Positions 21,274-33,594 of a DNA stretch of 64,000 bases are shown one piece after another. A model generated the notes under the pieces. That model saw nothing but the letters and a program-made list of their open reading frames with translations. It did not search any database and was not told the origin of the DNA. The position numbers were made by a program, and so were the translations under genes. The DNA is from Myxococcales bacterium (GTDB taxonomy: Bacteria; Myxococcota_A; Polyangia; Palsa-1104; JAEUJZ01): assembly GCA_033578775.1 (NCBI GenBank), contig JAVQWY010000014.1, positions 1 to 64,000 on the forward strand, written 5' to 3'. Positions within the stretch are counted from its first letter, which is position 1; every line of letters begins with the position of its first letter.

Positions 21274-21543
21274 ATGAAGCCCCAGCCCACAGATACCGCC
21301 GCAGTCCTTTATGACATCTACTTGCGCGCCTTTGTGCTCGCCAAATTAGGCAGAGAACTCCCCAATACTGCATTTCTTTACCGCCAGGATGTGCCCCTGT
21401 CGCAGGCCGAGTTGCTGGCCGTGGCCCTCGGCGCAGATGATGCCAGCACGTCGGGCAGCTTGCTCGGGCGGGAGGCCCTGCTGGCTCGCATCGAGGCCCT
21501 GCTCGGTGCCCCCGCCGGGGAACCGATGGCCCTGGTCGCATGA
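21274..21543 (+). CDS. hypothetical cytoplasmic protein (about 89 aa)
   Basis: GGAAG motif before the ATG. Its stop overlaps the next reading frame (ATGA at 21540). No domain recognised. Confidence 0.4.
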   Translation: MKPQPTDTAAVLYDIYLRAFVLAKLGRELPNTAFLYRQDVPLSQAELLAVALGADDASTSGSLLGREALLARIEALLGAPAGEPMALVA

Positions 21544-21719
21544 TGGGCCCGTACCAGAGCCCCTGGGGGCCTCCCGCCGCGCTCATCCCGCAGGGGAGCG
21601 GTGTGCCAGAGGGTCCTGCTCAGGCCCAGCCCGCTGAACCGGCTGACCCCACAGGGCCCGGAATGACCAAACGGTGCGGCGGGCCCTGCCGGGCCCGACC
21701 CTTGCTATCCTGTGCCCCT

Positions 21720-23039
21720 ATGTGCCGTGTTTCCGTGACCGTTCCGGCCGCTCTGGCCGTTCTGCTAGTTGCTTTGCCCTTGCGGGCCCAGATGTCCACC
21801 CCGATGGATGGGAGCGCCGGCACCTGCAGCGGCAGCGTCGGCGGAGCCCCTCTGTCCGGGCAGGTGTTCCTCAACGTCAACGGCATCCGGGTCAGCACCG
21901 CGGGTGGGGCCGCCGGCGGGGTCTTCAGCCTGTCGGAGTGCGAGTGCAGCACGTCGGACATCTTTTTGGAGTTCATCCTCCAACAGGCCATTCCCAATGC
22001 GCTGGGCGACCTGGGCGCCGCCATGTACATCGGCATCGGCACGGATTGCACGGATCCCACTACGCGCTCGACGAGTTGTAAGGAGATCACCCGCGCCGAC
22101 TACCCTGATGGAAGCGAGTTTAACCTCTCGTTTTCGCTGTTCAAGACCCAGGGACGGGCCTTCTACATCCCCCTGCCGGCCGCGGTGGTAACCTCGCCGA
22201 AGATCGGCGTCAACCCGCCTCCCTTCACCTGCCAGGGCGTGACCTCCTCACGCTCTCTGACCATCTTTCTGGGCGACATTGCGGCCAGCCCGGCCACCTG
22301 CAAGATCCCGCTCCCGGTGCGCACCCTCCTCCCACCCCCGCCTACCGGCGTCACCACCCGCCCGGGCAACCGGGCCGTGTCCGTGCTCTGGAGCGTGCCC
22401 CAGGTCAACGAGGGCGTAGAGCGGTACCAGATCCTATGCCGCGATCGCGCCCGGCCCGATGTGCCCCTTAAGCCAGAGCTGCAGGCGCGACAGCTTTTTT
22501 ACTCCACCTGCATCGACCCGGCCGCGCGCCGCCACATTCGGCGGACGAACATCCCTGGCACGGGCGCAACCCTGCCCATCCCTGACATGGCCCGGAGCAC
22601 CCTGTCGAGCGCGGCACCGTCGCAGCGCGAGCCGCTGGAAACCATGGACATGGGGAGCGCCGACCTGAGCGCCGCGACCGACCCGCCCGGCTCCGGCGAT
22701 GCGTTCCGGCGCCTCGACCCGAGGTTCCTCTGCTCGGGCGAGGTGCGCGCAGCCAGCGGGGCCACCCTGGAGTATCGCGTGGACGGCCTGGACAATGGCC
22801 GGCAGTACGAGTTTGTCGTCGTGGCCATCGACTCTTATGGCAACGCCACCCCGTCGCAGCCCGTGCTGGCCAGCCCGCAGCAGACGCAGAACCTGCTGGA
22901 GGCCCTGCACCGCAGCGGCAACTACGCCGGCGGCTTTGGCTGCTCCGCCACCGGGGGCACGGAAGGCCATCTGCCCGGTGCCCTGGCTGCCCTGTTGTGG
23001 TTTGCCTGGACCCGGCGCCGACGGGGGCCAGCCTCATGA
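21720..23039 (+). CDS. secreted fibronectin-III-like protein with MYXO-CTERM sorting tail
   Basis: Sec signal 'MCRVSVTVPAALAVLLVALPLRAQ'. FN3-like segment ('RPGNRAVSVLWSVPQ...YEFVVVAIDSYGNATPSQPV'). The C-terminus 'GGFGCSATGG...LAALLWFAWTRRRRG' matches the MYXO-CTERM pattern. An alternative start is the ATG at 21663. Confidence 0.6.
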   Translation: MCRVSVTVPAALAVLLVALPLRAQMSTPMDGSAGTCSGSVGGAPLSGQVFLNVNGIRVSTAGGAAGGVFSLSECECSTSDIFLEFILQQAIPNALGDLGAAMYIGIGTDCTDPTTRSTSCKEITRADYPDGSEFNLSFSLFKTQGRAFYIPLPAAVVTSPKIGVNPPPFTCQGVTSSRSLTIFLGDIAASPATCKIPLPVRTLLPPPPTGVTTRPGNRAVSVLWSVPQVNEGVERYQILCRDRARPDVPLKPELQARQLFYSTCIDPAARRHIRRTNIPGTGATLPIPDMARSTLSSAAPSQREPLETMDMGSADLSAATDPPGSGDAFRRLDPRFLCSGEVRAASGATLEYRVDGLDNGRQYEFVVVAIDSYGNATPSQPVLASPQQTQNLLEALHRSGNYAGGFGCSATGGTEGHLPGALAALLWFAWTRRRRGPAS

Positions 23040-23947
23040 CAATGAGAGTGGGATTTGTATTGAGCATGATGGCGGTCCTGACAGCGGCCCCGGCGCGGGC
23101 CGAGTCACCGCAGCGCTTCGCCCTGGAGGTCAAGTTCGGTCCCTACCGTCCCGACATGGACGCCTCGCCGGGCCTGAGCCGGCCGGTGTTCTCGGATCTG
23201 CTCAACCCGCCCGATGCCGCTCGTGGCGATCGCCTCTACCCTGGGCTGCTCACGCAGGTGGAGCTGGACTATCAATTTCTCCATCGTGTTGGCATCTTGG
23301 GCGTCGGCCTGAGCGTCGGCTACCACCGGCGCTCGGCCCCGCAGCTGCGCTACTTTCCCGGAGCAATGCTGGCCACCTGCGACATCCAGGACGAGGTCCT
23401 CACAGCCTCCGACGGCGTCAGGCGGCCCTATAAGAAGTATGTGCTGCCGGACGGCAGCGTGGACCGCCAGGGCGCCTGCTTTTCCAACGACGAGCACGTG
23501 GTCAACGTGCTGCCCCTGTCCGTGCTGCTCGTGTATCGCTTCGACTGGCTGGACAAGCGCTTTGGCGTGCCCCTCATCCCCTACATGAAGGCCGGTCTGG
23601 CCTACTATCTGTGGTGGTTTGGCAGCAGCAGCGAGTTTGTCGTCCGCAAGGAGGTGGATGAGTCCGGGCAGCTGGTCGAAGATGGCCCCACCGCCTCGGG
23701 TGGCACCTTCGGCTTCGTGCTCCAGCCGGGGCTGGCCATCGATCTGGGCGCCATCGACCGGGCGGCAGCCCGCGTCATGGACAAGGAGATCGGCCTGAAC
23801 CGCGTCAGCGCTTTCGTCGAGCTGCACTACGCCCAGATCGACAACTTTGGTCACCCCGCCGAGCGGGACGTGGGCGGCCAGCGCGGACCCACCACCCTCA
23901 ACCTGTCTGACACCACGCTCAGTGCCGGCCTGGCATTTGAGTTTTAG
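23036..23947 (+). CDS. predicted outer-membrane beta-barrel protein
   Basis: Signal peptide 'MTMRVGFVLSMMAVLTAAPARA'. Alternating amphipathic beta-strand pattern. The C-terminal '...LSAGLAFEF' ends in Phe, as is typical for OMP barrels. The start overlaps the upstream stop (ATGA). Confidence 0.5.
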   Translation: MTMRVGFVLSMMAVLTAAPARAESPQRFALEVKFGPYRPDMDASPGLSRPVFSDLLNPPDAARGDRLYPGLLTQVELDYQFLHRVGILGVGLSVGYHRRSAPQLRYFPGAMLATCDIQDEVLTASDGVRRPYKKYVLPDGSVDRQGACFSNDEHVVNVLPLSVLLVYRFDWLDKRFGVPLIPYMKAGLAYYLWWFGSSSEFVVRKEVDESGQLVEDGPTASGGTFGFVLQPGLAIDLGAIDRAAARVMDKEIGLNRVSAFVELHYAQIDNFGHPAERDVGGQRGPTTLNLSDTTLSAGLAFEF

Positions 23948-23952
23948 CGCCC

Positions 23953-25572
23953 ATGCCAGGCCCGCTTCACGTCGAGCTCCGCCTGGTCGACTGGGCCATT
24001 CTGGGCATCTACTTTGCCTTCGTCCTGGGCATTGGCTGGCGGCTCAAGCGCCACATGCGCACGGCGGAGGAATTTCTCCTGTCAGGCCGGTCCATCCCGT
24101 CGTGGATCACGGGCCTGGCTTTTCTGTCAGCCAACCTGGGCGCGCTGGAGGTCATGGGCATGGCCGGCAACGGCTACAAGTATGGCCTCATGACCGCCCA
24201 CTTCTACTGGGTCGGTGCCATCCCGGCCATGGTCTTTGTCGGCCTCTTTATGATGCCCTTTTATTACGGCTCGCGCGCCCGCTCGGTGCCCGAATATCTG
24301 CGCCTGCGCTTCGACGAGAAGACCCGCGGCCTGAACGCGCTGAGCTTCGCCGTGCTCACGGTGCTCATGTCCGGCATCAACATGTATGCCATGGCCATCG
24401 TCTTCGAGGTCATGCTCGGCTGGTCGATCCACGCCTCGATCCTGATGAGCGCCGCGGTGGTGCTGGCCTATACCTACCTGGGCGGGCTGACCTCGTCTAT
24501 CTACAACGAGGTACTGCAGTTCTTCCTTATCGTGTTTGGCTTTGCACCGCTGGCCATCGTCGGTGTAGAGGCCGCCGGCGGCTGGTCTGGCATTGAGCAG
24601 AGGCTGGCCCATACGCCGGGCATGACGGCCATCTGGTCCAGCGCCATGCGCACCACCGACAACCCGATGGGCATCGAGCTGTTTGGCCTGCTGATGGGCC
24701 TGGGCTTCGTGCTCAGCTTTGGCTACTGGTGCACGGACTTCCTCGTGATCCAGCGCGCCATGGCCTCGCGCGACATACCGAGCGCCCAGCGCACGCCGCT
24801 CATCGCCGCCCTGCCCAAGGCCCTGTTTCCGTTCGTGGTGGTGGTGCCAGGGCTGGTGGCCGCTGCGCTCGCCATCGAGCTGCCAGGCAATCGATACGAC
24901 TACACCCTGCCGCTGCTGCTCAAGCGGTTTTACCCCACAGGCATGCTCGGCCTGGGTCTGGCGGCGCTGCTGGCCTCGTTCATGAGCGGCATGGCCGGCA
25001 ACGTGACGGCCTTTAACACGGTCTGGACCTACGACATTTACCAAGCCTACATCCACCGTGGTGCCAGCGACCAGGCGCTGCTGCGCACCGGCCGGCTGGC
25101 GACGCTGTGGGGCGTGGTCGCTTCCATTGGTACGGCCTACCTGGTGCTGCGCTTCGACTCGCTGATGGACTACATGCAGCTGCTGTTTGGCTTCTTCAAC
25201 GCGCCCATCTTTGCTACTTTTCTTCTGGGCATGTTCTGCAAGCGCACCACGGCCAACGGGGCCTTTTACGGTCTGCTGTGTGGCATCTCGGCGGGCATTC
25301 TGCACCACGTCGTTCGCTCCGTCGGGTTCATCCGTTACCCGAGCGACATGGCGGCGGCCTTCTACGGCGCCATCGTGGCCTTTGTGACCTGCTTTGTTGT
25401 CACCGTGCTTGTCTCGCTGGCAGGCCGGGCGCCAGCCGAGGAGGCCCTGCGTGGGTTGGTCTACTCGCTGACGCCGCGGCAGCAGCTGAGGCTGCCCTGG
25501 CACCTGCGCCCCGGAACAGCCGCTGTGGCCGTGCTGGTCGTGGTGGTGCTGCTCAACTGGCGATTTTTCTAG
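23953..25572 (+). CDS. sodium:solute symporter family transporter
   Basis: 539 aa with about 13 predicted TM helices. SSF-type motifs 'GRSIPSWITGLAF' and 'YLGGL'. Starts 6 nt after the upstream stop. Confidence 0.85.
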   Translation: MPGPLHVELRLVDWAILGIYFAFVLGIGWRLKRHMRTAEEFLLSGRSIPSWITGLAFLSANLGALEVMGMAGNGYKYGLMTAHFYWVGAIPAMVFVGLFMMPFYYGSRARSVPEYLRLRFDEKTRGLNALSFAVLTVLMSGINMYAMAIVFEVMLGWSIHASILMSAAVVLAYTYLGGLTSSIYNEVLQFFLIVFGFAPLAIVGVEAAGGWSGIEQRLAHTPGMTAIWSSAMRTTDNPMGIELFGLLMGLGFVLSFGYWCTDFLVIQRAMASRDIPSAQRTPLIAALPKALFPFVVVVPGLVAAALAIELPGNRYDYTLPLLLKRFYPTGMLGLGLAALLASFMSGMAGNVTAFNTVWTYDIYQAYIHRGASDQALLRTGRLATLWGVVASIGTAYLVLRFDSLMDYMQLLFGFFNAPIFATFLLGMFCKRTTANGAFYGLLCGISAGILHHVVRSVGFIRYPSDMAAAFYGAIVAFVTCFVVTVLVSLAGRAPAEEALRGLVYSLTPRQQLRLPWHLRPGTAAVAVLVVVVLLNWRFF

Positions 25573-25579
25573 GAGGCTG

Positions 25580-25829
25580 GATGGGGCTCGACATCCGCTT
25601 GCCCATCGGCCTGATGTTTTGTCTTATGGGGCCGTTGCTGCTCGGGACCGGCCTGGCAGAAGGCAGCCCGCTCAGCGCGCGCACCGGGGGCGCCATGCTG
25701 CTCTTTGGGGGGGTGATGCTGGCGCTGGGGCTGCGCGCTCAGCTTAGCGCCTCCTCATCGGAGGCCTCGTCCTCGTCGGACGCTTCCGCCTCGTCCTCTT
25801 CATCCTCCTCTTCAAACGAGATCACATAG
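25580..25829 (+). CDS. possible small membrane protein downstream of the symporter
   Basis: AGGAGG RBS 6 nt before the ATG. Two hydrophobic helices ('LPIGLMFCLMGPLLLGTGL', 'AMLLFGGVMLALGL'). The C-terminal Ser-rich tail is antisense to the FHA gene's acidic tail, so the true end is uncertain. Confidence 0.25.
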
Positions 25830-26095
25830 TCGCCAATGTAGAGCTTGTCGTCCACGTCCAGCGGCCGCGGCTCCTCGACGCGAAAGCCGTTGACGAAGGT
25901 GCCACAGGTGCTCTTAAGGTCTTCGATCCAGTACTGTTCGTCTTTGACAAACAGGCGCGCGTGCCGCTTGGACACGATGCCGTCGGGCAGCACGATGTCG
26001 TTGGCGCTGCTCAGGCGGCCAATGTTGATCTCGTCCTTTTCGATCTCCAGGCGCCGCTGCTTGCCTTCCTTATGGACGATCCGGAAGACGGGCAC
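25739..26095 (-). CDS. FHA-domain protein with acidic C-terminal tail
   Basis: Canonical FHA elements 'INIGR', 'DIVLPDGIVSKRHARL' and 'IEDLKSTCGTFVNG'. Start assigned to the GTG with an AGGAGG RBS 7 nt upstream. The tail is 'EEEDEEDEAEASDEDEASDEE'. Confidence 0.75.
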   Translation of the reverse strand: MPVFRIVHKEGKQRRLEIEKDEINIGRLSSANDIVLPDGIVSKRHARLFVKDEQYWIEDLKSTCGTFVNGFRVEEPRPLDVDDKLYIGDYVISFEEEDEEDEAEASDEDEASDEEALS

Positions 26096-26227
26096 GATAG
26101 ACCTCCTGCCGCATCGTACCATGGCCTGCCCGAGCCTTCACAGAGGGGGCGTGAAGCGGGATTCACAGGGAGCCCCCGCGCTCAGGCGACGGTTTCGTTG
26201 GCATGCGGGCTGCAATATCCGCCTGCC

Positions 26228-27073
26228 ATGAGAAGCCCGCTGCTTGCCATGGTGATTGCAACGCTGTCCTACATTGCCTCTGGAGCGGAAGGGGGGCTGC
26301 CGCTGGCCCGGGCCAGCGATGCCGCGACCCAGCTTCCCCGGCACCGTCTGGTGGGCGTGATTCTGTCCACCTCGCAGGTCCTGCTTTGGGACGAGGAAAC
26401 CGGCGAGTACCAGCTGCGCCGCGTGGGCGATGAGATCATGGGCGGGCGCATCGTGGCCCTGGAGGAGGACATGATCCTGCTGGAGCGGGGCGAGGAGCGG
26501 GAGGAGATCGGCATCATGCCGCCGCCCCAGCGGCGGATCGCAGCGCGGAGGTCGCGGCGTCTGCCGCCGATGATCGTCCAGGTGGCCCCGGTGGACCAGG
26601 AGCCGTCTGCCGCGACGCTGGCGCCGCAGGCGCCGGCCCAGCCAGTGCCCGGCCCGATGCCGCTGCCGGCCCAGCCAGTGCCCGGCCCGATGCCGCTGCC
26701 GATCCAGCCGCAGAGCCCACCCCCCGTGCCCCCTGCGCCACCGGCTGCGGCACCCCAGCTGGGCCCCGTGCAGGCCCTGTCGCGGGCCCAGCTGGAGCGG
26801 ACCCTGGAGGCCCTCGGCGGATCGGAGCCACCGGTGGCGCTGGCCCCCCATCCCAGCGGGGGCTACCGCATCCTGGCGGTGCAGGCCGGCAGCCTGGCCG
26901 AGGGGATGGGCCTGCGCCCGGGCGACATCGTGCTGCGCATCGACGGCCGGCCCATCCACTCCGTCGGCGACGCCGTTTCCGCCTACGCCTGGCTGCGGCT
27001 GACCGACCAGTTCACCATGGACGTGCTCCGCGACGGCCGCTTGCTGACTCTTCGCTACGTGTTCCAGCCGTAG
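26228..27073 (+). CDS. GspC/PilP-like protein: N-terminal TM helix, HR-like beta domain, Pro-rich linker, C-terminal PDZ
   Basis: 'HRLVGVILSTSQVLLWDEETGEYQLRRVGDEIMGGRIVALEEDMILLERG' resembles the GspC HR/PilP fold. The PDZ segment is 'GYRILAVQAGSLAEGMGLRPGDIVLRIDGRPIHSV'. Confidence 0.55.
   Translation: MRSPLLAMVIATLSYIASGAEGGLPLARASDAATQLPRHRLVGVILSTSQVLLWDEETGEYQLRRVGDEIMGGRIVALEEDMILLERGEEREEIGIMPPPQRRIAARRSRRLPPMIVQVAPVDQEPSAATLAPQAPAQPVPGPMPLPAQPVPGPMPLPIQPQSPPPVPPAPPAAAPQLGPVQALSRAQLERTLEALGGSEPPVALAPHPSGGYRILAVQAGSLAEGMGLRPGDIVLRIDGRPIHSVGDAVSAYAWLRLTDQFTMDVLRDGRLLTLRYVFQP
26637..26702 (+). repeat. 33-bp perfect in-frame tandem duplication (encodes AQPVPGPMPLP twice)
   Basis: 'gcccagccagtgcccggcccgatgccgctgccg' occurs twice in a row inside the Pro-rich linker of the GspC-like gene. 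Confidence 0.8.
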
Positions 27074-27600: not shown

Positions 27601-27721
27601 GTGCGGCGCCCTGGTGCAGCCGGTCAGTTGCGCCGGTACATCGTGACCACGCAGGTGCGGACCCCGTGCGGCGCCCTGGTGCAGCCAATCAGTCGCGCCG
27701 GTACATCGTGACCACGCAGGC
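27601..27721. repeat. direct repeat of about 56 bp duplicating the 3' end of the thiolase gene
   Basis: 'gtgcggcgccctggtgcagcc(g/a)(g/a)tcagt(t/c)gcgccggtacatcgtgaccacgcagg' occurs at about 27601-27656 and 27666-27721. The second copy contains the real thiolase stop. The first encodes a near-identical '...CVVTMYRRN*' tail. Confidence 0.75.
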
Positions 27722-28867
27722 CCCGCCCAGGCCGAGGTTGTGCTGCAGCGCCACCCGGGCCCCCTCCACCTGCCGCTTGTCCGCGGTGCCACGGAGCTGC
27801 CACACCAGCTCGGCGCACTGGGCCAGCCCGGTTGCGCCCAGCGGGTGACCCTTGGACAGCAGACCCCCGGACGGGTTGATCACGTACTTGCCGCCGTAGG
27901 TGTTGTCGCCGTCCCAGATGAACTTCTCGGCACCGCCCTCCGGGCACAACCCCAGGGCCTCGTAGCTGAGCAGCTCGTTGGTGGTGAAGCAGTCGTGCAG
28001 CTCGACCACATCCACGTCCTCGGGCCCCAGGCCGGCGCGCTCGTAGACCTGCCGGGCGGCGCTCTTGGCCATGTCGTAGCCGACCATCTTGATCATGCTT
28101 TTTTCTTGGAAGCTGGACGGAGAGTCGGTGGTCATGACCTGCGCCGCGATGTAGATGGGTGCAGACAGGCCGCGCCGGTTGGCAAAGTCGCTGGAGCACA
28201 GCACGGCCGCCGCCGCGCCGCAGGTGGGCGGGCAGCACTGGTAGCGCGTCAGCGGGTCGAAGACTTCGTCGGAGGCCAGTATCTCCTCGACGGTCAGCGG
28301 CTGGTTGAAGAGAGCATAGGGATTGTTGGCCGCATGGCGGCGGGCCTTCTCGGCAATCTTGGCGAAGGTCTCGCGTCGCGTGCCGTAGCGCCAGCGGTAC
28401 TCGCGGCCGGCGCCACCGAACATCTGTGCCGTCGGCGGGGCCTGGGTGAAACCCTGCACCTCATTCATGAGGTTGGCGTGCCACTCGACCGGGCTGGCGC
28501 GATCGGTCCACTTGGAGCCGAGCGCGCCCTTTTCCATCTTCTCGAAGCCCAGGGCGAGCACGCACTCGGCACCGCTCTCGATGGCCTGACGGGCGAGCAT
28601 GAGCGCAGTGGAGCCAGTGGCGCAGTTGTTGTTGACGTTGAAGATCGGGATGCCGCGCAGGCCAAGCTCGTAGACTGCGCGCTGTCCGCAGGTGCTGTCA
28701 CCGAAGACGTAGCCGGCATAGACCTGCTCTACGTCCTCGAACCCTACGCCAGCATCGCTCAGGGCCGCGCGGGCGGCCTGGCTGGCCATGATGTGATAGT
28801 CATCGCTCTGGCCCGGCTTCTGGAACTTGGTCATGCCGACGCCAATGACATGGGTCCGTCGTGCCAT
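27689..28867 (-). CDS. SCP2/SCPx-type 3-ketoacyl-CoA thiolase (nonspecific lipid-transfer protein thiolase domain)
   Basis: '[16 protein letters not shown]' N-terminus, active-site Cys in '[11 protein letters not shown]', and 'GHPLGATG' and 'GGLLSKGHP' motifs. AAGAGGTG RBS. Confidence 0.85.
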
Positions 28868-28888: not shown

Positions 28889-31870
28889 TTAGCCGAGGTT
28901 TTTGAGGAATCCCAGCCGGTGCGCCAGCAGGACATCACCGTCGACGCGCAGGCGACCACGCTGGAACAGGTCACGCGCAACCTGGGGGTCCCGCACAAGC
29001 TGCGCCAGGTCCGCATCGGCCAGGGTGAAGACCGCTGCAGCCTGCGGGTCTCGCCCGGGTCGGACGCCGACCGAACCAGGCCGCAGGTCCACGAGGTAGC
29101 TGGCCTCTGGGCTCTGGATGTGGAACTGCAACAACGCCCCGACCTCGGCGGCAAGCTGCGGGTTGCTGGCCAGCCGCTCGGAGAGCGCGCGAAAGATCGC
29201 CGGGGCGCACCCCTGGGCTGGCTGTCCCGCGGGCGGCGCCTGGACCGAGCCCTGCGCCGCTCCGCTTCCCTGCTCCGCCTGCAGCGCCCGGGCTGCGGCC
29301 TCGCGATCGATGTGCTTGAGGAAGTCCAGCTTCTGCGCGGCCAGCAGGTTGCCCGTGATCTTGAGCCGGCCGGAAAAGTACAGCTTCTGCGGGTCGGCCT
29401 GCCCGGTGGCCATGGCGATGAAGTCCGCCTCGCTCAGCGTGAGCGTCACATCGGGCGCCTCGGCCGTGCCCGGGGCGCAGCGGCCGGTTCCGTGCTTCAC
29501 ATCGAGTACCCAGGCGCTGTCTGGCTCGGTCAGCTTCCACTGGAACACGGTCTGGATGCGGGCCGGCAGCTCGGGGTGAGCCTGAAGGTAGTGGGCGATG
29601 GCCCGGAAGATCGCCTCGCTGCGCAGCCCGGATGCCGGGGGTGAGGCTGTCGCAGGCCCTGTGCCGCGCCGAGCCTGGATGACGCGCAGAGCTGCCTGGG
29701 GGTCGATCTTTTTGAGGAACTCCAGCTTCTGCGCAGCCAGCAGGTTGCCGGTGATTTTCAGCTTGCCGCCAAAGTAGAGCTTCTGCGGGTCGGCCTGTCC
29801 GGTGGTCATGGCGATGAAGTCCGCCTCGCTCAGCGTGAGCGTCACGTCCGGGGCGGCGGCCGCGCCCGGCGTGACCGAGCCGCTGCCGTTTTTCAGATCC
29901 AGGGTCCAGGTGCTGTCCGGATCCTTGATTTGCCACTGGAATACCGCCTGCACCTTGCTCACCAGATCGGGGTTGCGCTGCAAGTGATCGGCGATGACGG
30001 CGAAGACGTCAGCGCTCTGCAGCTCGGTGGGAGCAGACGGGGCCGGCCCTGGGGCCTCCTCCTTGGGCGGCTCGCGGTGCAGCTCCACCACGGCATTGCT
30101 CAGCACGACCCGGTCGCGCTCTTTGACCTTGCAGCGCAACAGGATGCGCCCTGGCTCCTCCTGCCACATCTCGGTAACGAGCGTCTCGCCCGGGAATACG
30201 CTGTCGGCAAACCGGACCCTGATGCTTCTGAGCAGACGCGGGTCGCCGCCGGCGAAGCTGCGCAGCACGTGCCGGGTGACAAAGCCAAAGGTGCACAGCC
30301 CGTGTAGGATGGGCCGCTCGAAGCCGAAGCCGCGGGCAAAGGCAGGGTCGGCGTGTAGCGGGTTCCAGTCGCCCGAGAGGCGGTAGAGCAGCGCCTGGTC
30401 GGGCCGCGTCTTCTCCTCGACGATGGCATCGGGCGGCCGGGAGGGCAGGGGAACCTCCACCGACGGACCTCGCTCTCCACCCCAGCCGCCGGCCCCGCGC
30501 ACAACGGTGGTCACTTCATTGTAGCAGAGCTCGCGGCCGCTCTCGTCGGTGGTGGTGATGGCCGTGACCACCAGGGCGTTTTTGCCCTTGTCGAAGATGT
30601 CCTTGATCTTCATGCGGTGCACGAGCTTTGCCTGCGTCGGCAGCGGTCGCCGGATCTCGGTGTACTGTTCACCGTGGAGCACGCGGTCTAGCCCATAGTG
30701 CAGGCCGGGCGCCTGCTTGCCCTGCTGCGCGGCGCGCACCAGAGCACCCACGGCCTGCGCAGCCATGAAGCTGGGCAGGGGATAGAAGCCGCTGGCGTTT
30801 AGCTCATACACCAGACGCAGGTCCTTCTCGTCGAGCGGATCGGCACCGGCACCGACCCCAAGAGCGTACAGCGCCAGGTCGCGTTCGGTGTAGCTGGACT
30901 CCAGCGGGGGGAACTCGTAGCCGAGCGCCTCGTCGACGTCAATGAACTCGTTGCCCACCTTGCCGCGGGCAGAGGCGAGGTTGTCGAGCACCGGCTGCAT
31001 CGAGGCCGTGATGTCCGACGGGTGGGTGGTGCGATCAAAGCTGGTGATGACGGCGAAGCGATCGCGCACCCCCTCGGGCGTAATGGGACGGGACAGCTTG
31101 AAGGTGTAGCCTGCCGTGCGCTCCCAGCGCAGCTTGCTGAAGAAGCCACCGCCGACTTCGAACAGACCGCCCGTTTCGGTGCACGACTCGTGGCACAGCC
31201 AGACCACCAGGGGCGAGACATACTCTGGCTTCAGGGCCTCGACGAGGTCTTTGGGTAGGACCGTTTCGGTCAGGCGCGAACCGGCAATGGGCGCGATGGT
31301 ATTGACCAGGATGCCACGCTTGCGGCCCTCTATGGCCAGGGTATTGGCCAGGCCGACGAGGCCCATCTTGGCGGCGCTGTAGTTGGCCTGGCCGAAGTTA
31401 CCATACAGGCCCGCTGCCGAGGTGGTAAAGAGGATGCGACCATAGCCTGCCTCGCGCATCGGGTTCCAGGCAGCGGCCGTGACGCGGTAGGAGCCGAGCA
31501 GGTGCACGCGGTAGATGAGATCCCAGTCCTGCTCGGTCATCTTCTGGAAAGAGGTGTCGCGCAGGATGCCGGCATTGTTGATGACGATGTCGATGCGGCC
31601 AAAGTGGTCCAGCGCGCACTGGACAATCTTGGCCCCATCCTCGACGGAGTCATAGTTGGGCACGGCCTCACCACCCAAGGCCTTGATCTCGGCGACGACG
31701 CGGTCGGCGGCTGCAGTGGACTGGCCCTCGCCATGGCGAGAGCCACCCAAGTCGTTGACCACCACGCGGGCGCCGCGGGCACCCAGCAGCAGCGCGTGGG
31801 CGCGGCCTAGGCCGCCGCCCGCCCCGGTGACGATGGCGACGCGTCCGTCGAAACGAAGTTCGTTGGCCAT
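28889..31870 (-). CDS. multifunctional enzyme type 2-like protein: SDR 3-hydroxyacyl-CoA dehydrogenase + MaoC hydratase-2 + three tandem SCP2 domains
   Basis: The N-terminus 'MANELRFDGRVAIVTGAGGGLGRAHALLLGARGARVVVNDLGG...YDSVEDGAKIV...NNAGILRD...YGNFGQANYSAAK...LAIEGRK' is near-colinear with eukaryotic HSD17B4. The MaoC hot-dog segment is 'LYRLSGDWNPLHADPAFA'. Three SCP2-like segments each carry 'TLTLSEADFIAM.TGQADPQKLYF.GKLKITGNLLAAQKL.FL'. AAGGAAGG RBS at 31880. Confidence 0.85.
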   Translation of the reverse strand: MANELRFDGRVAIVTGAGGGLGRAHALLLGARGARVVVNDLGGSRHGEGQSTAAADRVVAEIKALGGEAVPNYDSVEDGAKIVQCALDHFGRIDIVINNAGILRDTSFQKMTEQDWDLIYRVHLLGSYRVTAAAWNPMREAGYGRILFTTSAAGLYGNFGQANYSAAKMGLVGLANTLAIEGRKRGILVNTIAPIAGSRLTETVLPKDLVEALKPEYVSPLVVWLCHESCTETGGLFEVGGGFFSKLRWERTAGYTFKLSRPITPEGVRDRFAVITSFDRTTHPSDITASMQPVLDNLASARGKVGNEFIDVDEALGYEFPPLESSYTERDLALYALGVGAGADPLDEKDLRLVYELNASGFYPLPSFMAAQAVGALVRAAQQGKQAPGLHYGLDRVLHGEQYTEIRRPLPTQAKLVHRMKIKDIFDKGKNALVVTAITTTDESGRELCYNEVTTVVRGAGGWGGERGPSVEVPLPSRPPDAIVEEKTRPDQALLYRLSGDWNPLHADPAFARGFGFERPILHGLCTFGFVTRHVLRSFAGGDPRLLRSIRVRFADSVFPGETLVTEMWQEEPGRILLRCKVKERDRVVLSNAVVELHREPPKEEAPGPAPSAPTELQSADVFAVIADHLQRNPDLVSKVQAVFQWQIKDPDSTWTLDLKNGSGSVTPGAAAAPDVTLTLSEADFIAMTTGQADPQKLYFGGKLKITGNLLAAQKLEFLKKIDPQAALRVIQARRGTGPATASPPASGLRSEAIFRAIAHYLQAHPELPARIQTVFQWKLTEPDSAWVLDVKHGTGRCAPGTAEAPDVTLTLSEADFIAMATGQADPQKLYFSGRLKITGNLLAAQKLDFLKHIDREAAARALQAEQGSGAAQGSVQAPPAGQPAQGCAPAIFRALSERLASNPQLAAEVGALLQFHIQSPEASYLVDLRPGSVGVRPGRDPQAAAVFTLADADLAQLVRDPQVARDLFQRGRLRVDGDVLLAHRLGFLKNLG

Positions 31871-32041
31871 GGAAATCCTTCCTTGTTCCTTGAGGAGTCT
31901 GGCTGGATGAGGCCGTGCGGCGCACCAGCCCGCACGAGGGGCCGAGTATGAGGGCAGGCCCCATGGGCCGTCAAGGGCAGGGGATGCGATTCGGTGGGCG
32001 GCTGCTACTATTAGAAGGTCCGCCACTTCGCTGGAGGATCC

Positions 32042-32623
32042 ATGACGCTCCGAGTTCGCTTCGTCCTAGCTTGCACCCTGCTGGCGCAGGTGCTGCTCAA
32101 AAGCCCGTCGCTGGAGGCATCGGTGCTCCTGCCACTGAGCACGGCCCAGTTGGTCGCCCGAGCCGAGCGGATTGTGGTGGGCACGGTGGTGGGCCAGGAG
32201 AGTCACTGGGTGGATGGCGGGTCGGCCATTGTCACAGATGTGCGCATCCGCGTCACCCGCGCAGTCCTGGGGGCGCAAGAAGGGGAGATCATCACCGTGC
32301 GGCGTCTGGGTGGCACAGTGGGTGAGATCGGCATGCGCGTCTTTGGCGAGGCCAGCTTCCGGGACGGCGAGGAGGTGCTGCTGTTTGCCGAGCGCCGCGG
32401 CGGCGCCTACTACAGCGTGGGCATGACGCAGGGGACGCTGCACATCACGCAGCAGGGGGGACGGCGCATGGCCCAGATGGCCTTGGGCGGCGCCGAGATC
32501 GTGGGGCGGAGTGGGGTGGCGCCGGTTGTCCGTCCGCTGGAGGAGGTCCTCGATGAGGTGCGCCGTGCCCTGGCAGCGCGCCGTCCGGAGCCGGCGCAGG
32601 GCCGGTCGGAGCAGACGCGATGA
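32042..32623 (+). CDS. secreted hypothetical protein
   Basis: Signal peptide 'MTLRVRFVLACTLLAQVLL'. Its stop overlaps the start of the downstream protease (ATGA). Confidence 0.5.
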   Translation: MTLRVRFVLACTLLAQVLLKSPSLEASVLLPLSTAQLVARAERIVVGTVVGQESHWVDGGSAIVTDVRIRVTRAVLGAQEGEIITVRRLGGTVGEIGMRVFGEASFRDGEEVLLFAERRGGAYYSVGMTQGTLHITQQGGRRMAQMALGGAEIVGRSGVAPVVRPLEEVLDEVRRALAARRPEPAQGRSEQTR

Positions 32624-33594
32624 GGCCGCTGCAGAGCTTCTCTGGGCTGCTGGCCCTGGTGGGCCTGATTGCGCATGGGGGAGCGGCACAGGCCTGGGTG
32701 CGCTCGCGGACCAACGGCTGCCACCCGGTCTACTGGTCGCAGAGCTGCATCTACCTCCAGCCCGACGGCGAGCTGACCAAGGACCTGCCCGCCGACCAGG
32801 TGCAGCGCATCATCCAGAGATCCATAGCCCAGTGGCAGGACCGCATCGGCGGCAGCTTTCTCCGCCTCATCTACGTCCCGCCGGACGGGCCGCGTGAGGC
32901 GCGATTTGACCGCCAGCCGACCATCAAGTTCCGCACCGGACGCTGGTGCCGCCCTGGCGACTGCCAAGGCGACCGAGAAAGCTGCTATGACGCCAGCGCC
33001 GCAGCGATCACGACCGTGTTCTTCGTCAACAAGCCCGACAATGAGCAGGAGGATGGCCTCATCCTCGATGCGGACATCGAGCTGAACAGCGTCCACAACC
33101 AGTTCTATGATGCCGACCAGCTTCCTCCCCGGGGGGACGGGCGCACCCTGACCGATCTAGAAAACACGCTGGTGCATGAGCTGGGGCATCTGATGGGCTT
33201 GGAGCACACCTGCCGGTCGGCGGGAGACGGCATGCCGGACTGCACGGTCGACCACCTAGGCCAGCGACCGCCGTTGTGCAGCACGGTGCTAGCCGGCATG
33301 GATCGGGACCCGCGCCTGCGCGAGATTGCCGAGACCACGATGTTTGCCACGGCCCAGCCGCGTGAGACCAAGAAGCGCACCCCCGAGGCCGACGACGTCG
33401 CGGCCATTGTGGCCATCTACCCGGCAGCGCGCGATCCGCGCTCCTGCGAACGGCCCCGTCCAAGAGATCAATGTGGCGGCGGTGGCTGCGCGCTGGCACC
33501 GCATGGGCGCACGGCGGCCGCGGCTCCCCTGCTGCTGCTCGGGGCGATCCTGCTGTGCATGCGTCAGCGGCGCCAGAGCGGCCGCACATGCTAG
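32620..33594 (+). CDS. matrixin-like zinc metalloprotease with MYXO-CTERM tail
   Basis: Metzincin motif 'HELGHLMGLEHT' (HExxHxxGxxH). Signal peptide present. The C-terminus 'CGGGGCALAP...LLLLGAILLCMRQRRQ' matches the MYXO-CTERM pattern. Confidence 0.7.
   Translation: MRPLQSFSGLLALVGLIAHGGAAQAWVRSRTNGCHPVYWSQSCIYLQPDGELTKDLPADQVQRIIQRSIAQWQDRIGGSFLRLIYVPPDGPREARFDRQPTIKFRTGRWCRPGDCQGDRESCYDASAAAITTVFFVNKPDNEQEDGLILDADIELNSVHNQFYDADQLPPRGDGRTLTDLENTLVHELGHLMGLEHTCRSAGDGMPDCTVDHLGQRPPLCSTVLAGMDRDPRLREIAETTMFATAQPRETKKRTPEADDVAAIVAIYPAARDPRSCERPRPRDQCGGGGCALAPHGRTAAAAPLLLLGAILLCMRQRRQSGRTC

Follow-up and report, generated by a model that had tools for sequence, protein, structure and literature searches.

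A divergent sgmI/MXAN_2562-type gene pair and a separately conserved symporter module lie head to tail in a Myxococcales bacterium

Introduction

The social behaviour of myxobacteria relies on surface proteins that are sorted by the MYXO-CTERM tag, and the need for a barrel partner is understood for TraA only. The route described for MYXO-CTERM proteins consists of Sec export, anchoring in the inner membrane, presumed lipidation of a cysteine, cleavage by MrtX, and delivery through the type II secretion system, or T2SS; the open reading frames (ORFs) of TraA and TraB overlap, and MXAN_5598 is a natural fusion of an adhesin, a MYXO-CTERM region and a barrel (PMC11980579). TraA and TraB form a 1:1 complex in which the membrane-proximal head of TraA is predicted to sit atop the TraB barrel, and each protein reaches the outer membrane independently (PMC12045341). 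Another pair has been described in Myxococcus xanthus, where SgmI (MXAN_2561), an FN3 protein with a C-terminal sorting tag, is implicated in type IV pilus-dependent motility, MXAN_2562, predicted to be a barrel of the outer membrane, seems to share a transcript with sgmI, and insertions in the two genes give similar developmental fitness profiles in transposon sequencing (Tn-seq) (10.64898/2026.08.28.747804). Both families are curated in NCBIfam, MXAN_2561/SgmI as NF045522 and MXAN_2562 as NF040596. This study concerns a related locus at positions 21274-25829 of a 64,000-nt stretch of DNA, called the window here, from contig JAVQWY010000014.1 of a Myxococcales bacterium (GCA_033578775.1). In order, the locus encodes a small protein, an SgmI-like secreted protein (the cargo), an MXAN_2562-family outer-membrane barrel, a Na+/solute symporter of the SSF family, and a two-transmembrane mini-protein.

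The gene pair for cargo and barrel is a divergent member of the already curated and recently described sgmI/MXAN_2562 cassette, which is of a poorly characterised kind. For the locus as a whole, the explanation that we favour, at somewhat better than even confidence, is that two independent modules stand head to tail, namely the sgmI/MXAN_2562-type module A (21274-23947), in a version specific to this lineage, and module B (23953-25829), and that the barrel of module A is a docking partner for the cargo.

Results and Discussion

The gene pair and its relation to SgmI and MXAN_2562

The + strand of 21274-25829 carries five co-directional ORFs, as an earlier sequence-only reading of this DNA had stated. 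A second, independent gene caller agrees, having called the same five ORFs on a Logan assembly contig that carries an identical cargo protein; at NCBI the identical protein is RMK29_09590, from a 'Myxococcales bacterium' metagenome-assembled genome (MAG). GC content at third codon positions (GC3) favours coding for the cargo from ~21800, for the barrel, for the symporter, and for the last small ORF until an FHA gene begins at 25739. All five are present, and all appear to be genuine genes. As in M. xanthus, an FN3 and MYXO-CTERM protein is followed by a small outer-membrane barrel, and the features of these two genes are as follows.

21720..23039, + strand: cargo, SgmI-like secreted protein (alternative start 21663)
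21720-21791, + strand: cargo signal peptide, MCRVSVTVPAALAVLLVALPLRAQ followed by MST...
~21807-22331, + strand: cargo Cys-rich beta-sandwich N-region
~22332-22889, + strand: cargo FN3 domain, split by a disordered insert of ~43 residues
~22929-23036, + strand: cargo short helix, then MYXO-CTERM tail
23036..23947, + strand: MXAN_2562-family 8-stranded outer-membrane beta-barrel, 303 amino acids, signal peptide MTMRVGFVLSMMAVLTAAPARA followed by ESPQ, C-terminus ...AFEF

The FN3-like domain claimed for the secreted protein was confirmed, and so was the architecture of the proposed MYXO-CTERM tail. The cargo scores 28.9 bits on Pfam fn3 (cutoff 25), and its tail, ...NYAGGFGC-SATGGTEGH-LPGALAALLWFAW-TRRRRGPAS, has the three parts of a MYXO-CTERM region, a Cys motif, a transmembrane helix and an Arg-rich end with RRRR. 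The last 50 residues alone reach 21.9 bits on TIGR03901 (cutoff 20), and the same model gives 15.9 bits in the full-length protein. The AlphaFold2 model of the cargo, built with 37 homologues (pLDDT 79), shows a disordered insert at residues 283-325 that splits the FN3 domain and a helix at 421-434, and the cysteines of the cargo are invariant among homologues. An FN3 domain, together with a sorting tag at the C-terminus, also characterises the SgmI equivalog family, and over its last ~90 residues the cargo is a homologue of SgmI. However, unlike SgmI, it is ~110 residues longer than the 304-position model, it has a Cys-rich N-region that the model does not match, and its FN3 domain contains the disordered insert.

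The barrel passes the family cutoff on NF040596 (159.7 bits vs 100, E 7.4e-47) over model positions 1-208 of 208, and it has the signal peptide, transmembrane beta-barrel fold and C-terminal aromatic residue of that family. An outer-membrane barrel ending in Phe had been predicted, and the protein does end in ...AFEF; its AlphaFold2 model, made from 25 sequences (pLDDT 85.6, pTM 0.79), supports the barrel with eight long strands. A total of 147 barrel homologues were found, all from Myxococcota-type sources. The window barrel differs from MXAN_2562 in having extra loop insertions, namely a hairpin with a Cys pair in L2 and an insertion in L4, and the locus differs from that of sgmI/MXAN_2562 in that an orphan 89-residue gene precedes the pair. 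The best structural matches of the barrel are the pore-less NspA, OmpA, OmpW and PagL. Compared with NspA, the OmpA/OprF N-domain, OmpW and PagL, to which it is 13-20% identical, the window barrel is almost twice as long, has structured extra-membrane elements, and has turns that are unusually long, conserved and helix-bearing. When conservation was placed on the barrel model, the long turns T2 and T3 were as conserved as the strands (majority fraction 0.64) whereas L2-L4, presumed to be surface loops, were variable and rich in indels (0.21-0.35). T2 and T3 are presumed to face the periplasm, assuming the standard topology. Turns at residues 169-179 and 237-255 are predicted to be periplasmic and unusually long, with short helices, and they contain the family-invariant residues R168, D170, P179, L237, D241, D249, G253 and N255.

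The pair also resembles TraA/TraB, in that the ORFs of a MYXO-CTERM surface protein, which has a Cys-rich stalk, and of an outer-membrane barrel partner overlap. The resemblance does not extend to the sequences. The window barrel has no detectable homology to TraB and lacks the OmpA peptidoglycan-binding domain (neither NF033763 nor PF00691 matches it, and the 303-residue protein is a barrel only), and the cargo has no TSP3 repeats and no PA14-like variable domain.

The genes of the locus had been described as following one another with ATGA overlaps or gaps of 6 nt or less. This stands for the cargo stop and barrel start, which overlap as ATGA at 23036-23039, and for the 5-nt gap between the barrel stop and the symporter ATG. 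It does not stand for the symporter and mini-protein, which are 8 nt apart, or for the small ORF and the cargo, where the ATGA at 21540 belongs to a 499-residue form of the cargo ORF. This ATGA is most likely an artefact of over-extension and not real coupling, because the signal peptide of the 499-residue ORF begins only at residue ~61, GC3 does not favour the frame before ~21800, PGAP and the other gene caller put the start later still (21792), and in the closest relative (locus L081) 206 nt lie between the small gene and the cargo ORF, which opens directly with the signal peptide and could not be extended further upstream. The cargo probably starts at 21720, or alternatively at 21663, which leaves 176 or 119 nt after the small gene; in the homologue P0122, the signal peptide starts at the position equivalent to 21720.

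The structure of the barrel bears directly on what it could do for the cargo. One explanation is that it serves as a translocon devoted to the cargo, taking the lipidated protein across the outer membrane much as Slam does with surface lipoproteins in Neisseria. The strict adjacency and overlapping ORFs would fit this, and the conserved periplasm-facing turns with their short helices could receive a substrate. However, the model has eight strands and its best matches are pore-less, whereas known protein translocon barrels have 12-16 strands or more. The marks of Slam, a 14-stranded DUF560 barrel with periplasmic TPR, were also looked for in the barrel, which has eight strands, no TPR and no such Pfam match. 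Additionally, the MYXO-CTERM proteins studied to date use the T2SS (PMC11980579), and neither TraA nor TraB needs the other to reach the outer membrane (PMC12045341). A translocon is thus quite improbable, and the export role that the sequence-only reading suggested for the pair is not supported, a channel being unlikely with only eight strands.

An enzyme or lipid handler of the PagL, PagP or OmpW-like kind, acting on the lipid anchor of the cargo and not on its protein part, is an unlikely alternative as well, even though PagL and OmpW are among the best structural matches. There is no invariant His, Ser or Cys in the barrel family, so an active site of the PagL or PagP type is unlikely, as judged from the alignment. 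The lipid should be added at the inner membrane, ahead of the cut by myxosortase (PMC11980579), and the cassette persists where the tag has been swapped to CFI-box-CTERM, as described below.

Conservation of the cargo-barrel pair

Genomes were scanned with a barrel profile from a 10-sequence alignment, and the best 80 Myxococcota loci were compared. These include Enhygromyxa, Plesiocystis, Nannocystis, Labilithrix and many Polyangia MAGs; M. xanthus is not among them. A first search for cargo homologues gave 2 proteins, and a profile from translated neighbour ORFs gave 38. A homologue of the window cargo was detected directly upstream of the barrel by tblastn in 45 of the 80 loci. By tail architecture, 61 loci have a protein with Cys, transmembrane helix and Arg-rich end directly upstream, and 6 have a CFI-box-CTERM protein there; of the 77 loci whose upstream sequence suffices, at least 67 therefore have a C-terminally anchored protein immediately upstream of the barrel. 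Three further loci show other evidence of a cargo. As a rough estimate from the ~30 MYXO-CTERM proteins reported per genome, the chance of such a neighbour for a random gene is well under 1%. The distribution of the barrel relative to MYXO-CTERM genes in Myxococcota is far from random and the barrel fold is supported by structure prediction, so the proposal that a MYXO-CTERM cargo is paired with an outer-membrane protein of its own is upheld.

The part of the cargo that stays constant is the part nearest the membrane. When ten diverse barrel-linked cargos were compared with NF045522, all ten matched below the cutoff (29-69 bits), seven of them only around positions 215-304, the last ~90 of the model, and distant cargos align to the window cargo over residues ~320-430 only. 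Because the cargos mostly match only positions ~215-304, this comparison indicates that the membrane-proximal FN3/stalk/tail is constant and the heads vary. Barrels with a long L2 insert travel with cargos whose homology to the window cargo spans nearly the whole of the latter.

The sorting tag itself can differ. Cargo homologues in loci L011-L015 and L018 (proteins P0132, P0139 and P0142) end in CFI-box-CTERM in place of MYXO-CTERM, with P0142 scoring 83.9 bits on NF041770, the CFI-box-CTERM model. These cargos keep an MXAN_2562-type barrel gene directly downstream, which indicates that the tag has been swapped within one cassette. No mention of CFI-box-CTERM was found in the literature searched.

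Beyond the cargo, the surroundings of the barrel change from lineage to lineage. Within 10 kb of the 80 barrels there is no homologue of the SSF symporter, the MVP-like gene upstream of the locus, the small ORF, the mini-protein, the FHA gene or an OmpA domain. In the sister lineage (L081-L083), cytochrome c genes lie upstream and the downstream gene is unrelated, with neither SSF nor MVP nearby, and another relative has a GMC oxidoreductase downstream of the pair. A distant barrel subfamily in Nannocystaceae and Polyangia (L021-L079) has a fixed context of its own, as judged by sequence motifs only: genes for MoxR-like ATPase, DUF58-like and transglutaminase-like proteins lie upstream, and in 24 loci the barrel is followed within a few nt by the start of a TruA-like gene.

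These data also bear on whether adjacency is mere co-expression of two independent envelope proteins. Such an explanation would fit the loose spacing in most genomes (median ~79 nt) and the few barrels without a cargo neighbour. However, the pair is kept in ~87-91% of evaluable loci over deeply diverged Myxococcota while all other neighbours change, and the Tn-seq profiles of the two genes match in M. xanthus (10.64898/2026.08.28.747804). The window also encodes a second MYXO-CTERM protein, a matrixin-like M10 metallopeptidase (32620-33594, + strand) with the tail ...CGGGGCALAPHG...LLLLGAILLCMRQRRQ. Next comes an aminotransferase and there is no barrel neighbour, and the pairing is thus specific to the cargo family. 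Mere co-expression is therefore a distinctly doubtful explanation.

The symporter module and the MVP-like gene

The two genes downstream of the pair make up module B, and the gene upstream of the locus lies on the other strand.

23953..25572, + strand: SGLT-type Na+/solute symporter, starting 5 nt past the barrel stop
25581..25829, + strand: two-transmembrane mini-protein, 82 amino acids, conserved part ~first 55, with a GGAGG Shine-Dalgarno sequence and ATG at 25581
18140-20983, - strand: MVP-like gene, 947 amino acids, with MVP shoulder and vault repeat domains (Pfam MVP_shoulder 63.9 bits, Vault_3, Vault_4)

The identification of a Na+/solute symporter is secure, with 182.8 bits on PF00474 (cutoff 22.8) and 252.1 bits on TIGR00813 (cutoff 184). 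Its best relatives in the PDB are vSGLT (E 1.8e-51) and human SGLT1/2, to which it is strongly similar over its full length, and by this similarity its substrate is probably a sugar. Metagenomes contain more than 590 relatives at 53-63% identity. A galactokinase gene is adjacent or nearby in 20 of the 80 SSF loci examined.

A possible small membrane subunit had also been proposed, and it proved to be a real gene. The symporter stop overlaps the GGAGG, which stands 5 nt before the ATG at 25581, and GC3 in the mini-protein frame is 0.83-0.86. A profile of family members found a homologue directly downstream of the SSF gene in 72 of 73 evaluable metagenome loci (L087-L166), so in contrast to vSGLT and human SGLT1/2 this symporter subfamily is nearly always followed by a two-transmembrane mini-protein. 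The family consensus is M(G)LDIRLPIGLxF...G...NVNLWWG..L..FG..ML..RR, and no curated Pfam or NCBIfam model reaches threshold on the mini-protein. It looks like an uncurated family of accessory subunits of bacterial SGLT-type transporters, on the evidence of conserved gene order. The mini-protein ORF overlaps the convergent FHA-domain gene (25739-26122, - strand) by 91 nt (25739-25829), and its poly-Ser tail, which lies outside the conserved family part, is the antisense of the acidic tail of the FHA protein. The tail probably results from the lack of a stop codon.

The MVP-like gene is divergent from the small ORF across a shared region, as had been noted, and the spacer is exactly 290 bp (20984-21273). 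The four or five genes had been read as one operon, and the divergent arrangement as a possible sign of co-regulation with MVP. In one functional version of this idea, a polysaccharide-binding adhesin would be combined with a sugar-importing symporter in a single operon that is co-regulated with MVP through the 290 bp. The genes share one direction, there are gaps of 5 and 8 nt, no terminator is significant, and an MVP promoter-like site and the upstream region of the small gene share one intergenic stretch, all of which would fit. The comparisons do not. No SSF or MVP gene is found near the 80 barrel loci or in L081-L083, barrel and cargo neighbours are absent from all 80 SSF loci, the SSF gene is accompanied by a mini-protein of its own and often by galactokinase, and no convincing shared operator was found. 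A single functional operon is therefore very unlikely. The SSF and mini-protein genes are separately conserved and never stand beside barrel homologues, and from this gene-order record they form an independent conserved pair that would be functionally unrelated to cargo and barrel. Likewise, co-regulation with MVP has no comparative support, since adjacency to MVP is absent from 80 of 80 genome loci and from the closest relative, and the divergent MVP gene is a chance neighbour. The supposed five-gene operon divergent from MVP thus comes down to two ordinary modules and a chance neighbour, and gives no basis for inferring the function of the bacterial vault homologue.

Proposed mechanism and points against it

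According to the two-module explanation, the cargo of module A would be exported by Sec and held in the inner membrane by the transmembrane helix of its MYXO-CTERM tail, where the cysteine of GGFGC would be lipidated and myxosortase would cut, as in TraA. The 8-stranded barrel from the overlapping downstream gene would be inserted by BAM. The barrel would not be a channel but a cognate 1:1 partner in the outer membrane, at which the membrane-proximal FN3/stalk of the cargo may dock in the manner of TraA/TraB, and the variable Cys-rich N-terminal beta-sandwiches would be the adhesive end. Module B would be an SGLT-like Na+/sugar symporter with a conserved two-transmembrane mini-subunit and a function unrelated to that of module A. 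Docking is favoured over export because an 8-stranded barrel is too narrow for a folded protein and because of the analogy to TraA/TraB; the contact of cargo and barrel is a docking predicted by this analogy.

Several observations weigh against this explanation. The main weakness is that conserved T2 and T3 turns together with variable L2-L4 loops fit docking in the periplasm better than docking at the surface. The assignment of the cargo is also less than complete, as its tail has just 15.9 bits on TIGR03901 in the full-length context and the protein misses the cutoff of the SgmI equivalog model NF045522 (47 vs 150 bits), matching positions 216-304 only. Five or six barrel loci have no recognisable cargo upstream, and the median spacing of ~79 nt between cargo and barrel elsewhere means that tight coupling is not general. 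Finally, the two modules may not be separate in transcription. Since the gap is 5 nt and no terminator is significant, read-through co-transcription of the symporter module with cargo and barrel is likely in this genome, though this is a local arrangement and not a functional unit.

A more tentative proposal, which we regard as possible, goes beyond this locus. The pair may be a portable surface-anchor cassette in which a membrane-proximal FN3/stalk and an obligatory 8-stranded barrel co-receptor are combined with interchangeable adhesive heads and a swappable tag, MYXO-CTERM or CFI-box-CTERM. If this is true, the principle seen in TraA/TraB would hold for a second barrel family as well, one that is unrelated and much more widespread, and lipid anchoring alone would be insufficient for such surface proteins. 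The conservation of the SgmI-type cassette across Polyangia, Nannocystaceae and related uncultured lineages also provides a testable hypothesis for the role of MXAN_2562 in M. xanthus.

The small upstream gene and the control region

Two further features lie upstream of the pair.

21274..21543, + strand: small cytoplasmic protein, 89 amino acids, no signal peptide, upstream of the cargo gene
21199..21226, + strand: candidate promoter of the small gene, TTGACA-N17-GTACA, ~50-75 nt upstream of the ATG (low confidence)

The small gene is taken to be real because an ORF of 93 residues at the same position in L081-L083 encodes a protein with 64% identity (E 4e-33), and because the differences from this sister lineage are mostly at third codon positions, with a ratio of nonsynonymous to synonymous changes (dN/dS) of 0.19 over 88 codons. 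A phmmer search of 1.84 billion representatives returned the protein itself and two low-complexity matches only; the latter, ~1000 residues long, were rejected as noise. No match was found in Pfam, NCBIfam, PDB or Rfam, and even at E = 5 the other 80 barrel loci show no homologue of the small ORF. On these comparisons the gene is real but a lineage-restricted orphan, and it is a putative accessory of the pair.

The upstream regions of the window and L081 have otherwise diverged, and the candidate promoter is the sole motif conserved in both; its L081 form is TTTACA-N17-GTACA. A scan for the sigma-70 consensus did not call it, and a sigma-54 reading of the motif was dropped, there being no GC at -12. 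Shared operator motifs, which the sequence-only reading suggested looking for in 20984-21273, were searched for and none stood out; a search for repeats in the intergenic region turned up only short and imperfect ones without conservation, such as CTGGCCAAGA/TCTTGGCAAG at 21010-21058. Promoter and terminator scans gave nothing beyond shuffle level. Neither a hairpin at the 3' end of the barrel gene (z = -1.09) nor the leader between small gene and cargo (z = +0.17) was distinctive, and an Rfam scan of 20800-26300 gave one sub-threshold snoRNA match only.

Other features of the window

A gene with a prepilin-type N-terminal methylation domain (PF07963) is located at 12764-13321 on the + strand, according to the gene table of L086, and its product could be a pilin or a T2SS pseudopilin. 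The MVP homologue (18140-20983) belongs to a cluster of three eukaryote-like genes, all on the - strand, of which the others are at 27689-28867 and 28889-32026. Among their products are a 1045-residue MFE-2-like enzyme, with SDR, hydratase-2/MaoC and three SCP2 domains, and an SCPx-like thiolase.

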